Shown piece by piece: positions 6,985-12,451 of a stretch of DNA of 64,000 nt. The notes under the pieces are model-generated. The model was not told the DNA's origin. It saw only the letters and a list, made by a program, of their open reading frames with translations, and did not search any database. Both the position numbers and the translations under genes were made by a program. Origin of the DNA: Polyangiales bacterium. GTDB lineage: Bacteria > Myxococcota_A > Polyangia > Polyangiales > Ga0077539. Within the stretch, counting starts at the first letter, position 1; each line of letters begins with the position of its first letter. The stretch is taken from the NCBI GenBank assembly GCA_044229975.1, contig JBGARZ010000002.1, positions 1-64,000 of the forward strand, given 5' to 3'.

Positions 6985-8173
6985 ACAGCGCGGCGCCGAG
7001 GGAGGTGCCACCGATGAGCACGGCCGCAACGACCAGCGCCGTACGCGGACCGCCACCGCCACCACCGTTGGTGCGAGGAGGCGTGGCGGGTCGTGGTGCC
7101 ATCGCGGCGCTCGAAGGAGCACCCGCGACGGCCGGACCGCCGGGCTGATCGAGGACGATCATCACGGTGCGCGCGCGCTTGTCCGCGAACTCCGCCCCGC
7201 GCACGACGGGACCGCTGGGCATCGGCGCGGGCGGCGGCGCCATGCGCGAGGCGATCACCCGCTCGGCGAGCGGGTACTGCCGCAGGGCAGCTGAGCCCAT
7301 CGGCTGTTGCAGGGCGTCGTGGAGCGCGGCGCCGAACACGTTCATCGACACGAAGCGGTGCTCGGCGCTCTTGGCCATCGCGCAGAGGATCACGGCCTCC
7401 ATCGCGGGGCTGATGCTCGGGACGATCTTGGACGGTGACCGAACGGCCTCCTGGAGGATGGCGTCGATGGTCGACTGTTCGCTCTCGCGCAGAAACGGCG
7501 ACGACCCGGTGAGGAGCTCGTAGAGCAACACACCGAGCGAGTAGATGTCCGCGCGCGGATCGACGGTGCCTGTGCCGGCGGCCTGCTCGGGGGCCATGTA
7601 CGCGGGGGTGCCGACGAGGAGCGAGCCGTTGTTCCAGGCGAGGCTGTCGTTGGGGTCGGAGAGGAGGCCCGCGATTCCGTAGTCCATGAGCACGGGGTAC
7701 GTCGGGGCGCCGAGGTTGCGCGCGAGGTACACATTGTCGGGCTTGAGGTCGCGGTGGACCACCCCGGCCCGATGGGTCGCCTCGAGCGCGGAGATGATGG
7801 GCGTGAGCAGCTGCACCGCTTCGAGGTCGGTGAAGCGCCCCTTCCGGTAGAGGAGGTCGACGAGCGTCTCCCCCTCCAGGTAGGTCAGCACCATGAACGG
7901 CGCGCCGTCGTCGGCGTACCCCGTGTCGAGGAGCTGCACCACGTGCGGGTGCGAACACATCGCCACGGCCTGCGCCTCGCGCAAGAACCGCTCGACGATG
8001 CCGCGGTCACGCACGAAGCGGGCGCGCAGCATCTTGATGGCGACGCGGTGCCCGCTGTGGAGGTGGAGGGCGGCGTAGACCAGCCCCATGCCCCCCTCGC
8101 CGATCTGGCGCTCGACCTGGTACGCGCCAGCGAGGACCGTACCGATCCTGATTGGCTCTGGGGGCGCGGACAT
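6956..8173 (-). CDS. Hanks-type Ser/Thr protein kinase with C-terminal TM helix
   Basis: GEGGMG, VAIK, HRDLKPDN, DYG, GTPAYMAPE. Confidence 0.95.
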   Translation of the reverse strand: MSAPPEPIRIGTVLAGAYQVERQIGEGGMGLVYAALHLHSGHRVAIKMLRARFVRDRGIVERFLREAQAVAMCSHPHVVQLLDTGYADDGAPFMVLTYLEGETLVDLLYRKGRFTDLEAVQLLTPIISALEATHRAGVVHRDLKPDNVYLARNLGAPTYPVLMDYGIAGLLSDPNDSLAWNNGSLLVGTPAYMAPEQAAGTGTVDPRADIYSLGVLLYELLTGSSPFLRESEQSTIDAILQEAVRSPSKIVPSISPAMEAVILCAMAKSAEHRFVSMNVFGAALHDALQQPMGSAALRQYPLAERVIASRMAPPPAPMPSGPVVRGAEFADKRARTVMIVLDQPGGPAVAGAPSSAAMAPRPATPPRTNGGGGGGPRTALVVAAVLIGGTSLGAALFIGWQYLHR

Positions 8174-8244
8174 CGCGGGGCAGTCTCTCAATCCGGCGCG
8201 TCGCGGGCAAGGGTTCTCGCGACGGGCGTAGAGTTGGGGCCCTC

Positions 8245-9621
8245 GTGCGCGCGATCCGACTCTCTCGAATCTTCCTGGTTGCGGTGCTCTTCGGTGCGTC
8301 CGCGTGTCGTCCGCGTGCGCCCCGGCGCGCCGTCCCCGATCGGTCGACCGTGGTCGACGCCGGGCGTGACAGCTTCATCCGTCACGCCGCGCACCCCGCC
8401 CTCGGATGTCCCGCGGTGACGGGCGACCGGACCGCCGGCGGGAGTCTCCACGGCGACACCGTCTCGGGCGTCGAGCGCTGGCTCGCAGCGGACAGCCCGC
8501 ACCGCGTCACCTACGGGCTGCATGTTCACCCAGGCGCCAGATTGACCATCGAGCCGTGTGCCCTGGTGCTCGTGGGAGCGGGCACCGAGGTCGTCGTGCA
8601 CGGCGGCGCGACGTTGCGCGTGGAGGGACAAGCGGGTCGCCCCGTGCACTTCGCGCGTCTCGACGTCACCAACGCGTGGCAGGGGCTCGAGCTGCGCCCC
8701 GACGTGCTCGCGGACACATCGCTCCACGAGCTGACGCTCGATGGCGCCGGGGCTATGCCGCCAGACCGTGGCGTGACGGCGGCCTCGCTACGTCTCGCGA
8801 TGAGCGCGGGGCTGGACGCCCGCGGCCTCGCGATCACCCGCAGTGTCGGATGGGGCGTCGCGGTGATGGGAGATGGACGCTTCGCCGACCCCGACGCGGT
8901 CGTGACGGTGACGGGGTCGCACGGCGAGGGGGTCGCGACGGTCGAGGATGTTCGACGCGTCGCCGACCTCCCGCGCTTCGAGGTTCGCGACAACGCGAGC
9001 GATGACGTGCGCGTCGAGGGGAGGGCGCGGACGCTGAGCGAGAGCGGACGCTGGCGGGCGCTCGGTGGAGCGGGGCGCTACCGCGTCCGGCCTCACATCC
9101 ACGTCGTGGTGGAGGGGCCGAGCGATCCGACGCTCACGCTGGACGGGGGCGCGCGGTTGGCCTTCGGCGAAGGGGCCGAGCTCGACGTCGGCTTCGGGGC
9201 GCCCGGCGCGCTCGTCGCGGTGGGGGACGCCATACACCCGGTTGTATTCGAGGGCAGCGAGGCGGCGCGCTGGGTGGGGTTGCACTTCGGCCCGAACCTC
9301 TCGCTCGCTCGCACTCGCGTGGCGTTCGCGCGCGTCGAGCACGCCGGAGAACCCTCGGGTTCGCTGCTGCCGACCTGCGGGGCAGACGACGCACGAACCG
9401 ACGAAGCCATGATCACCTTTCAGGGGGTCGATGGCGTCCGGGCGCTCCGCTCTGTGAGCTTCGTCGACGGACCACCCACGGGCTTCGCCATCGTCGTTGC
9501 GGGGGATTTCGCTGGACCAGCAGCTCCCTATGACCTTGTTGCGGGCGCGTTGGACTTTACGCGGTCGCGTGTTCGACACCCGTTGAGCCGGGCCCTGCGC
9601 GCCGGTCGATGTGCGCCATAG
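8245..9621 (+). CDS. Hypothetical lipoprotein, probable beta-helix
   Basis: Lipobox-like ASAC; two repeats of LTIEP/LTLDG…G…PV.F…W.G typical of myxobacterial beta-solenoid lipoproteins. Confidence 0.65.
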   Translation: MRAIRLSRIFLVAVLFGASACRPRAPRRAVPDRSTVVDAGRDSFIRHAAHPALGCPAVTGDRTAGGSLHGDTVSGVERWLAADSPHRVTYGLHVHPGARLTIEPCALVLVGAGTEVVVHGGATLRVEGQAGRPVHFARLDVTNAWQGLELRPDVLADTSLHELTLDGAGAMPPDRGVTAASLRLAMSAGLDARGLAITRSVGWGVAVMGDGRFADPDAVVTVTGSHGEGVATVEDVRRVADLPRFEVRDNASDDVRVEGRARTLSESGRWRALGGAGRYRVRPHIHVVVEGPSDPTLTLDGGARLAFGEGAELDVGFGAPGALVAVGDAIHPVVFEGSEAARWVGLHFGPNLSLARTRVAFARVEHAGEPSGSLLPTCGADDARTDEAMITFQGVDGVRALRSVSFVDGPPTGFAIVVAGDFAGPAAPYDLVAGALDFTRSRVRHPLSRALRAGRCAP

Positions 9622-9692
9622 GGCGCGTATGAGCGCAGGAATCCTTTGAATTCAGGCAAATCAAGCACGGGACGCACAATCTCGCGCGGGGG

Positions 9693-9710
9693 GTCAATCA
9701 TAATTTTGAC
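9693..9710. promoter_or_regulatory. Inverted repeat GTCAA-N8-TTGAC, candidate operator
   Basis: GTCAATCATAATTTTGAC in an AT-enriched intergenic stretch. Confidence 0.45.
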
Positions 9711-9912
9711 GCTGCTCGAATGTGCAGCTTTGGCGACTTTGGGAGGGTCACCGTCACGTCCTGGTCACCTGGGGGTTCCTGGTGTCATTTCCTTGGCTTA
9801 CCCCCCGGACGTTGCCTGTCCGATCGCGAAAATGGCTTGTAGCGCAGGCTCCTGCGATGGAGCCGGCGGCGTCGCGACGCGAAGCGTCGAAGGACGACGA
9901 ACGATTCTGATG

Positions 9913-10145
9913 GGAGCTCCAGGGGACAAAGCGTCACCTGCACCGACCTGAACGTCTGTCTGTGTCTTGAAGGGCCCCGGAATCTGGCGCACCAAGGGCG
10001 TGCGTCGGGTGGCTCTGGGCCCGACGGGCAGCGGACGGACGGACCCGCTGTCGCAGTGCATTGAAGGGCCCCGCGGATCTCCTTTGATGTGGTCGGGTCG
10101 GTGTCGCCTTCGGGTGACCGGTACCCCCACACCCTGGGGACCTCC
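9913..10145 (+). ncRNA. Candidate structured RNA (sRNA or 5' leader), family unidentified
   Basis: Nested long-range helices with at least 8 G-U pairs on the + strand (see findings). Confidence 0.65.
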
Positions 10146-10258
10146 GTTGGGGTGTTGGGAGTCGTGTGCCCGGTGAGCGGGCGCGCGGCCGGAGGGGCTG
10201 TGGTGGCCCCGACGGGCGGAGCCTTGTTGCGCGACAGCGCACGGTTGGAGGTCGAGAG

Positions 10259-10783
10259 ATGTCGATGGAGGAACCGATCGAGATGAGGCCCGGCAGCGTG
10301 GTGACGCTGTCACTGGTTCGCGAGGCGCTCGGCGAGGCAGCGCCCTCCCGCGGGCCCGTCGGACTCGCCGGGTCGCGCGAGAAGTCCAAGACCATCTCCG
10401 TGAAGCGCCTCTCCAAGCGGGAGATTGCGCGCTCACGGCAAGAGGTCGAGGGCTTCGCGTATCACCGCCCGCGGCATCGGGCGGATTGCCAGCACGGCGC
10501 GTTCGCGGCGCGGCCGTGCCCCTATGTTTCGTGCAAGTTCCACCTCTTCCTGGAGGTGAACCCGCGCACCGGGAGCATCCGGATGAACTTCGTCGACAAG
10601 GAGCCGTGGGAGCTTCTGGAGACCTGTGCGCTCGACGTGGCCGACCGAGGCGGCGTGACGTTGGAGGAGGTCGGCGGTTGGCTCAACCTCACCCGCGAGC
10701 GCGTTCGTCAGCTCGAGGTCCACGCCCTCGGCGTGCTCCGCGCCGTGTCGGAATCCGCCGAGCTCATGGACCTCTGCGGCTGA
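10259..10783 (+). CDS. Cys/His-motif protein with a sigma70 region-4-like HTH only
   Basis: C…[12 protein letters not shown]…TCALD, then [21 protein letters not shown] (sigma 4.2 signature); GGAGG RBS. Confidence 0.85.
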
Positions 10784-10876
10784 GCACAACGCCACGGCCG
10801 ACTCGATGCAGAGGGAGGCGGCGCGGGGTTTGGGTATAGTGCCCGCGCCGCGCCGGTGCGGCCCCCCGAAGGCGTC

Positions 10877-12451
10877 ATGACAACGATCCGTCGCGTCCTG
10901 GTTTCTGTCTCCGACAAGCGTGGTCTCGTGGACTTCTTGCGCGTCGTCGCCGCGAAGGGGGCTGAGCTCCTTTCCACGGGCGGCACCGCGAAGGCGCTGC
11001 GCGAGGGCGGCCTCACCGTCACCGATATCAGCACCTACACGGGCTCGCCGGAGATCATGGACGGCCGCGTGAAGACGCTGCACCCGCGGGTGCACGGCGG
11101 CATTCTCATGCGCGAGCTCGATGAAGATCGCGCGGCGCTCGCGTCCATCGGCGGCGAGCCCATCGACCTCATCGTCGTGAACCTCTACCCCTTCGAGGAG
11201 ACGCTGCGGCGGCCGGGCGCCTCGCACGAAGAACTCGTCGAGAAGATCGACGTCGGCGGTCCGACGATGGTGCGGGCCGCGGCCAAGAACCACGCGCGCG
11301 TCGCGGTGGTGGTCGACCCGGCGGACTACGCGCGGGTGCAGGCCGAGATCGAGGCCGACGGCGCCGTGTCGCACGCGACCCGGGTGTCGCTGGCGGCGAA
11401 GGCCTTCGCCCACACGGCGGCCTACGATGGCGCCATCGCGGGCTACCTCTCGGGCCTCGGCGATGACGGCGGGCGGGAGCGATTTCCGCGCTCGCTCCAC
11501 CTCGACTTCGAGCGCGCGTACTCGCTGCGCTACGGGGAGAACCCCCATCAGGAGGCGGCGTTCTATCGCGAGCGCGCTGCGGCGGAGGGCACGCTCGGTC
11601 GCGCCGAGAGCCTCGGGTCGGGGGGCAAGGAGCTCTCGTTCAACAACCTCGTCGACGTGGACGCCGCGCTCGAGGCGGTGCGCGAGCACGAGGGCCCGGC
11701 GGCCGTCGTGGTGAAGCACTGCAACCCGTGCGGCGTGGCCGTGGGCGCGACGCTCGAAGCGTCGTACCGGGCGGCGCGTGACGCCGACGCGGTGAGCGCC
11801 TTCGGCGGCATCGTCGCGCTCAACCAGCGGGTCGACGCGGCCACGGCGCGGGCCCTCGCCGAGACCTTCCTGGAGGCGGTGGCGGCGCCGGGCTTCGACG
11901 ACGAGGCGCTCGCGATCCTGCGCGCGAGGAAGAACCTGCGGCTGCTCGCGGTTGGCCCGTGGCTCACGGCCGACCATCGCGCGACGACGCTCAAGGCCGT
12001 GAGCGGTGGTCTTCTATTGCAGGACCGTGACGCCACGGCGCGCGACGAGGTCCGCCACGGCAAGGTCGCCACGAAGCGCGCGCCGACGGAGGACGAGCTG
12101 CGGGCGCTGACCTTCGGGTGGGCCGTGTGCAAGCACGTGAAGAGCAACGCGATCGTGCTGGCGCGCGGCGACGGCGGTGTGCTCCGCACGGTGGGCGTGG
12201 GCGCCGGTCAGATGTCGCGCGTGATCTCGGTGGACATCGCGGCGCGCAAGGCGGGCGACCTCGCGGGCGGGAGCGTGCTCGCGTCCGATGCGTTCTTTCC
12301 GTTTCCCGACGGACTGGAGCGCGCGGTGGAAGCGGGCGTGCGCGCGGTGGCCCAGCCGGGTGGCAGCGTGCGCGACGCCGAGGTCATCGCGGCGGCCGAC
12401 CGCGCGGACATCGCGATGGTGTTCACGGCGGTGCGACACTTCCGGCACTGA
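10877..12451 (+). CDS. purH: Bifunctional AICAR transformylase/IMP cyclohydrolase
   Basis: SVSDK, STGGT, GRVKTLHP, LRYGENPHQ, SDAFFPF, C-terminal RHFRH. Confidence 0.98.
   Translation: MTTIRRVLVSVSDKRGLVDFLRVVAAKGAELLSTGGTAKALREGGLTVTDISTYTGSPEIMDGRVKTLHPRVHGGILMRELDEDRAALASIGGEPIDLIVVNLYPFEETLRRPGASHEELVEKIDVGGPTMVRAAAKNHARVAVVVDPADYARVQAEIEADGAVSHATRVSLAAKAFAHTAAYDGAIAGYLSGLGDDGGRERFPRSLHLDFERAYSLRYGENPHQEAAFYRERAAAEGTLGRAESLGSGGKELSFNNLVDVDAALEAVREHEGPAAVVVKHCNPCGVAVGATLEASYRAARDADAVSAFGGIVALNQRVDAATARALAETFLEAVAAPGFDDEALAILRARKNLRLLAVGPWLTADHRATTLKAVSGGLLLQDRDATARDEVRHGKVATKRAPTEDELRALTFGWAVCKHVKSNAIVLARGDGGVLRTVGVGAGQMSRVISVDIAARKAGDLAGGSVLASDAFFPFPDGLERAVEAGVRAVAQPGGSVRDAEVIAAADRADIAMVFTAVRHFRH

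Follow-up and report, generated by a model that had tools for sequence, protein, structure and literature searches.

Positions 9913-10145 of the 64,000-nt stretch of DNA analysed here (the window) probably hold parts of two adjoining elements, the promoter of an asgB homologue (9913-9995) and, from around position 10002, an untranslated leader that forms a chain of local hairpins and not a rod. This reading is based on the fixed spacing of the motifs in the 5' part, the free variation of the spacers between them, a rod that is lost among relatives and local hairpins that persist within the genus. The sequence-only reading had proposed a single structured RNA of about 230 nt across both parts, closed by a long rod of nested helices.

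The candidate RNA sits inside the intergenic gap 9622-10258, 5' of the asgB homologue (10259-10783, + strand), which codes for a 174-aa protein with a C-terminal sigma-70 region 4 (PF04545, E 1.6e-7). Its identity was judged by size and domain (approximately 160-175 aa with a C-terminal sigma-70 region 4), and a 77%-identical relative bears the NCBI name 'DNA-binding protein AsgB'. Such homologues were found in 93 of 151 genomes of the phylum. In most loci of the family the gene 3' of asgB is purH (10877-12451, + strand; PF01808 and PF02142), which may own a promoter, with a TATAGT at 10835-10840 close upstream that has no good -35 hexamer. On the other side of the element, a 489-aa ORF (8152-9621) without Pfam or NCBIfam match is found in genera g1, g5 and g7. 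Two further features of the gap were noted: GGGTCAA at 9691-9697 (TTGACC on the - strand) is kept in the genus and might be an antisense promoter or an operator, although no divergent gene is present, and TTGAAGGGCCCC occurs twice (9967-9978 and 10061-10072), likewise in the metagenome locus L110, and is absent from the other sequences of the genus. According to the accessible parts of the published work, AsgB of Myxococcus xanthus has 163 aa with a C-terminal region 4 and is required for the A-signal (PMC3986340, PMC4320627, bioRxiv 10.64898/2026.08.28.747804), and both A-signalling and phase variation are under its control (PMC3986340, PMC4320627).

The proposed fold was accurately drawn. 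All eight of its helices occur without mismatches, and they contain exactly eight G-U pairs. The 233-nt piece folds on the + strand with a minimum free energy of -117.4 (z -2.39), as good a value being reached by 4 of 200 shuffles; the hand-drawn structure itself amounts to -94.6 kcal/mol. The two strands differ (z -2.39 for the + strand vs +0.68 for the - strand). The G-U pairs had been read as a sign of a + strand RNA; the leader strand is rich in G and U (G108 T45 C74 A25 over 252 nt) and thus favours G-U pairs by composition alone. Among random 233-nt, intergenic-like control pieces of the same genome, drawn from contig C32 and folded with 15 shuffles each, z values of -2.39 or below were obtained in 19 of 190 strand-folds (13 of 95 pieces), and a strand difference of at least 3 in only 1 of 95. 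The folding evidence beyond chance for the 233-nt piece is weak. Furthermore, the helices ACGTC/GATGT and GGCAGCGG/CCGCTGTC have a pair probability of 0.0 in the ensemble of the 233-nt piece, and the probability of the two outer rod helices falls from 0.87-0.99 to 0.0 once the folded piece reaches as far as the start codon, so that they depend on the cut at 10145. None of the three terminator-like sites in 9550-10900 is near 10145, and no second copy of the element was found in the genome. Rfam searches gave no match for 9600-10300 at E<=10 and, at gathering level, two tRNAs and nothing else in the whole 64-kb window. As had been noted, signatures of SRP, RNase P and tmRNA are absent here; family models for each of them matched elsewhere in the genome.

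We compared the rod among 11 sequences of the genus, i.e. this locus, seven genomes and three metagenome contigs, several of them close kin. The four closing rod helices are paired in 48.5, 48.8, 40.9 and 51.5% of cells, next to 31-44% for slid controls. In L110, which is 89% identical (26 of 233 positions differ), the 3' arms of the rod carry eight changes and the paired 5' arms none; 6 of 36 rod pairs are broken and 0 compensated. One of these changes, T10090C, loses a rod pair and turns a G-U pair of the local hairpin H3 (described below) into G-C. Arm-swap tests run without this locus gave p=0.033 for the inner rod, p=0.017 for H4, p=0.15 for H2 and p=0.33 for H3, values that do not separate rod from hairpins; the same procedure gave p=0.22 for the whole 5' arm of the rod and p=0.035 for its spacer alone. 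The rod is not conserved in relatives. Most likely, it represents chance pairing of a GC-rich promoter spacer with a G/U-rich leader.

What had been taken for the 5' arm of a rod RNA is instead an ungapped, promoter-like array of motifs. The 5' half (9913-9995) consists of the palindrome GGAGCTCC, CTGAAC and TTGAAG-N17-CACCAA at fixed spacing, with spacers of freely varying sequence. We aligned 21 loci from three genera, anchored on GAGCTC and CTGAAC. They stack without gaps from 9914 to approximately 9995, apart from two in which the register slips by one base ahead of GCAC, and TTG and GCAC-N-AA are also conserved. The distance from AGCTC to TGAAC is 34 in 16 of 18 loci, 33 in one and 35 in another. 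The palindrome (9913-9920), likely the site of a dimeric transcription factor, coincides with the outermost 5' arm of the rod. The bulk of that arm is a 27-nt spacer (9921-9947, + strand) of fixed length and free sequence, with near-zero information per column. The array part shows no folding advantage at offsets -1 to 88 (z -2.1 to +1.8).

Of 301 genomes searched in the order, 16 hold the exact pattern GAGCTCY-N27-CTGAAC-N13-TTG, each a single time and always upstream of asgB, and all 16 belong to a single family; a relaxed pattern was found in 18 of the 29 asgB loci of the family. The pattern had eight matches in metagenomes, from which L105, L109 and L112 were left out as chance matches without asgB, and L111 was retained at 92-94% identity, its contig stopping short of asgB. 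A genome scan with the whole array detected no second regulon member, the next score being 9.1 vs 58.7. The array precedes the first gene of the unit, be it asgB or a MerR-like gene, and the sequence beyond the -10 hexamer differs between genera. As the MerR-like gene lies between array and asgB in some loci of genus g5, the array tracks the first gene and not the ribosome-binding site of asgB.

The predicted -35 hexamer is TTGAAG (9967-9972, + strand), whose TTG is invariant, and the predicted -10 hexamer is CACCAA (9990-9995, + strand), at a 17-nt spacing that falls within the 16-18 nt of sigma-70-type promoters and in a conserved register; transcription would start at about 10002. We scored this site with a matrix of 35 tRNA-promoter sites of the genome, chosen for TTG and for A at position 2 of the -10 hexamer. 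These promoters read TTGACA-N16-18-TA(G/C)ANN, and only 5 of the 35 selected sites have the last T of the -10 hexamer, which is why the site at 9967 went undetected in a promoter scan of the E. coli type. With the tRNA-promoter matrix, it is the top + strand site in 9622-10258. In 13 of the 21 anchored loci, this locus included, none of the 1812 candidates ranks above it, and in the other eight it is 3rd to 32nd. Its score of 8.0 bits is low, 31 of the 35 training sites being higher. The 6S gene of the genome is preceded by a similar TTGAAG-N17-CACGGT, 36 nt ahead of the Rfam start, with 4.0 bits. The site thus resembles the tRNA and 6S promoters of the genome in its TTG -35, 17-nt spacer and A at -10 position 2; it differs by its weak score and by the adjoining conserved palindrome and CTGAAC box, which are undescribed for asgB in the accessible parts of the literature. 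Sigma-54 promoters have the consensus GG-N10-GC at -24/-12, and no conserved site of this type was found in the 21 loci. Upstream of the array, a motif resembling the IHF site (consensus WATCAANNNNTTR) lies at 9788-9800 on the + strand, with three mismatches at this locus; 17 of the 21 loci have it with two mismatches or fewer at an offset between -123 and -127. A GAC-N7-GTC inverted motif (9808-9820) is also conserved in the alignments. Overall, the asgB homologue is likely to have its promoter at 9913-9995.

Downstream of the predicted start, the proposal of a regulatory leader on the + strand retains its value for the 3' part only, from about 10002. H0 (CGUCGGGU/GCCCGACG, 10003-10026, + strand) stands at the predicted 5' end and is 94.8% paired in the 11 sequences. 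It excludes the hairpin first drawn at 9982-10010, of which it takes the 3' arm and whose 5' arm is promoter spacer and -10 hexamer. In 10 of 11 sequences of the genus, a hairpin of -12 kcal/mol or lower has its first base no more than 2 nt away from 10002, which is the peak over 175 offsets; an equivalent start was found in 4 of 10 sequences from outside the genus, where it is not the peak. H2 (GGCAGCGG/CCGCTGTC, 10027-10052, + strand) is 95.5% paired, with two double-change pairs and a variable loop, and in L110 the loop has changed and the stem is intact. The overlooked H3 (GCAUUGAAGG/CCUUUGAUGU, 10058-10090, + strand) takes the GATGT that the rod had used. It is 70-84% paired, depending on register, and the duplex of its two arms amounts to -12 to -17.5 kcal/mol in all 11 sequences. 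H4 (GUCGCC-UUCG-GGUGAC, 10103-10118, + strand), 67-68% paired, takes CGGGTGAC from the rod and has one pair broken in L110. The remainder of the predicted leader (10119-10258, + strand) contains poorly conserved further hairpins and a Shine-Dalgarno GGAGG (10247-10251); whole leaders measure 256-388 nt across loci.

Taken together, H0, H2 and H3 are 90.9% paired with seven double-sided changes in the 11 sequences, H3 on its own standing at 83.8%, next to 41-58% for slid controls. The covariation is modest, the observed values being reached by 8-21 of 500 shuffles and within reach of relatedness. G-U is preferred to A-C in H0 (6:1), H2 (13:2) and H3 (23:11). At this locus the local leader folds no better than its shuffles (z +0.4 and +0.9). 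H2 and H3 both turn up in local folds; in folds without constraints that run from 10000-10024 up to the start codon, the probability of H2 is 0.02-0.2. RNAalifold applied to alignment A3 returned H2 and a weak outer helix only, and model R1 was therefore unused. The covariance model R2 (H2-H4), whose structure was given by hand, detected 8 of 9 genomes of the genus, with a single strong copy ahead of asgB in each; all eight belong to its training set. In the remaining 22 genomes of the family it gave no convincing match (best E 0.04). Thus, as far as the alignments and models indicate, the leader from about 10002 is likely a genus-restricted chain of local hairpins comprising H0, H2, H3 and, more weakly, H4. 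Two other readings of it were considered and rejected. CsrA/RsmA was not found as PF02599 in this 93%-complete genome, and the GGA loop that might be its target or sponge is changed in L110, L073 and L075; no HMM trace of a decayed MerR-like gene was detected in leader or genome (best E 0.47).

The CTGAAC of the array corresponds, as its reverse complement, to the strong half-site in the SOS box of M. xanthus, given as CTRHAMRYBYGTTCAGS in the accessible parts of PMC9705874 and bioRxiv 10.1101/2020.12.14.422803. The predicted LexA-box-like site A (CTGAAC-RNNY-G..., 9948-9963, + strand), 3 nt 5' of the -35 hexamer, shares with that box, and with the 58 lexA and recA sites of the family, the invariant CTGAAC half and the RNNY-G spacer, but the terminal AG is found in only 1 of its 21 copies. 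R at +6 is present in 21 of 21 copies and G at +10 in 20 of 21, against a genomic CTGAAC background of 980 and 494 of 1782. We built a LexA matrix solely from lexA and recA promoters of the family, such a site being present in 30 of 30 and 28 of 30 of them, respectively (58 sites). Site A has both halves in 10 loci of g5 and g7, where it scores 12-18.8 bits; in g1 it is a half-site, with 1.6-5.4 bits over 11 loci (2.5 at this locus). A second predicted site, B (CTGCTC-GAAT-GTGCAG, 9712-9727), lies some 280 nt 5' of the predicted start in the genus where site A is a half-site. Its 14.6 bits are matched or beaten in 3 of 740 intergenic stretches. It directly follows a TTGACG (9706-9711), as does the box in the lexA promoter of the genome; the -10 there is poor. 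In 20 of 21 loci, the best predicted LexA site of the asgB region has 9.6 bits or more, and in 15 of 21 it has 12 bits or more; the null values are 31 of 740 and 8 of 740 intergenic stretches. Selection on CTGAAC inflates these figures for site A and not for site B, and they come from kin loci, which are not independent. In genera without the array, predicted LexA sites of 11.6-21.3 bits were found in four loci.

Among the 16 top matches of the matrix outside the training set, genes coding for RecA-domain, DNA polymerase III alpha-like, RecT and topoisomerase VIB proteins lie downstream; the other matches are unrelated or intragenic. The LexA-box-like sites in question precede a topoisomerase VI B subunit gene (G000:C38:243874) and a RecT gene (C11:111060). 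Facing CTGAAC...GTTCAG half-sites were also seen about 35 nt ahead of a TTGAC in L087, L091, L093 and L095, from genera without the array. In the accessible part of PMC9705874, a recN box of M. xanthus with two mismatches is unbound, and asgB is unnamed in its main text and one supplement; the supplements of PMC8844925 examined have no asgB entry. A search of the literature outside subscription journals found no publication naming asgB together with LexA. SOS control of asgB is thus a prediction from the sites. We tentatively propose, at somewhat less than an even chance, that in this family LexA directly represses the asgB promoter, together with purH and in some genera the MerR-like gene, so that developmental signalling would respond to DNA damage, and that the transcript carries a hitherto undescribed hairpin leader specific to the genus.

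The genes around asgB showed additional features. A second asgB paralogue is present in all nine genomes of the genus searched (L096-L104; in this genome L103, G000:C38:845836-846378). A strong promoter is predicted upstream of it (TTGACG-N17-GAGAAG, 14.1 bits), and behind this promoter the GGAGCTC palindrome recurs. The occurrence of this palindrome (GGAGCTCC) ahead of both paralogues hints at a shared regulator or at autoregulation by AsgB. A gene of the MerR_1 HTH type directly precedes asgB-purH in 17 loci of the order (L087, L090-L093, L095, L040, L078, L081 and loci of other families). In three g5 loci it lies between array and asgB, and HMM searches did not find it in this genome. With regard to M. 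xanthus, asgB (MXAN_2913) belongs to the same family of small sigma-70 region-4 proteins, judging by its description in the accessible part of PMC3986340. Its upstream region, likewise compared by description, has a MrpC ChIP peak at -288 and another gene starting close by (PMC4320627, accessible part). Here, no exact site for the MrpC consensus was found in the 64-kb window, and none is conserved in the 21 loci.

A discrete rod sRNA of about 230 nt starting at 9913, possibly a second 6S-like RNA with its long closing stem, is very unlikely. The presence of all helices, the z value of -2.39, the rarity of the strand asymmetry and the inner-rod swap without this locus (p=0.033) speak in its favour, as does a contig from an RNA library that spans the region. 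This contig, from run X1 of a relative, covers 9751-10047 and 10235-10614, thereby crossing the predicted start and joining the leader to asgB. It possibly reflects DNA carry-over or read-through and gives no information on the start position; as the run shares only 0.05 of words, we withheld any inference on habitat. Against the rod sRNA, its pairs are kept at only 41-52% in relatives and are broken without compensation in L110, the closest of them, its outer stem goes once flanking sequence is included, and no terminator-like site is near 10145. The likeness to 6S RNA (RF00013) is confined to a similar length and to a possible drawing of the 233-nt piece in which a long stem closes an inner junction. 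The candidate falls below the 46.4 bits of RF00013, with no match at E<=10, its long closing stem around a bubble is not conserved, and the only RF00013 match of the genome, at 57 bits, is elsewhere (G000:C20:79402-79588). The same X1 contig, in reaching 9751, and box B, placed after TTGACG as in the lexA promoter, agree with transcription from further upstream, by read-through from the 8152-9621 gene or from a promoter at TTGACG 9706, which would make the motifs operators and the hairpins incidental. This is the least probable reading: the -10 there is poor (3.8-5.9) and TTGACG is lost in most of the genus, whereas the TTG-N17-CAC register is invariant and a hairpin starts at 10002.

An identical promoter might also be followed by a hairpin chain with a function of its own, as a true regulatory switch (an attenuator or a protein- or ligand-bound leader) or as the source of a released, stable small RNA. 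We regard this as improbable, if less so than the two preceding readings. The order of H0-H4 is kept across the genus, G-U is preferred to A-C, and R2 finds its single strong copy upstream of asgB in 8 of 9 genomes; yet this is one genus only, the best other family match has E 0.04, loops are variable, leader length ranges over 256-388 nt and there is no CsrA for the GGA loop. No terminator-like site was detected in 10002-10258. Riboswitches and attenuators would be recognised by an Rfam aptamer or by a conserved core with a terminator, and the leader, restricted to the genus, has neither.

In the reading that we prefer, a promoter followed by a leader of local hairpins, the housekeeping sigma factor would read the weak TTGAAG-N17-CACCAA and start at about 10002. 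The palindrome GGAGCTCC, the IHF-like site and the CTGAAC boxes would be bound by proteins, the best candidate for CTGAAC being LexA, which would repress until DNA damage occurs. Stabilizing stem-loops at the 5' terminus and long structured 5' UTRs are known from other bacteria, e.g. E. coli ompA. The predicted leader is like them in having a hairpin at its 5' end and further local hairpins behind it, with no relation in sequence. The 5' hairpin may guard the mRNA end against decay, and a G-rich leader packed with hairpins may evade the loading of Rho, for which a gene was found in the genome.

As an RNA, the element would therefore be an ordinary, genus-restricted structured leader, neither a new class of sRNA nor a second 6S RNA, and its useful part is the promoter. 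Should the boxes be genuine, asgB would be a member of the SOS regulon in this uncultured family of Myxococcota.
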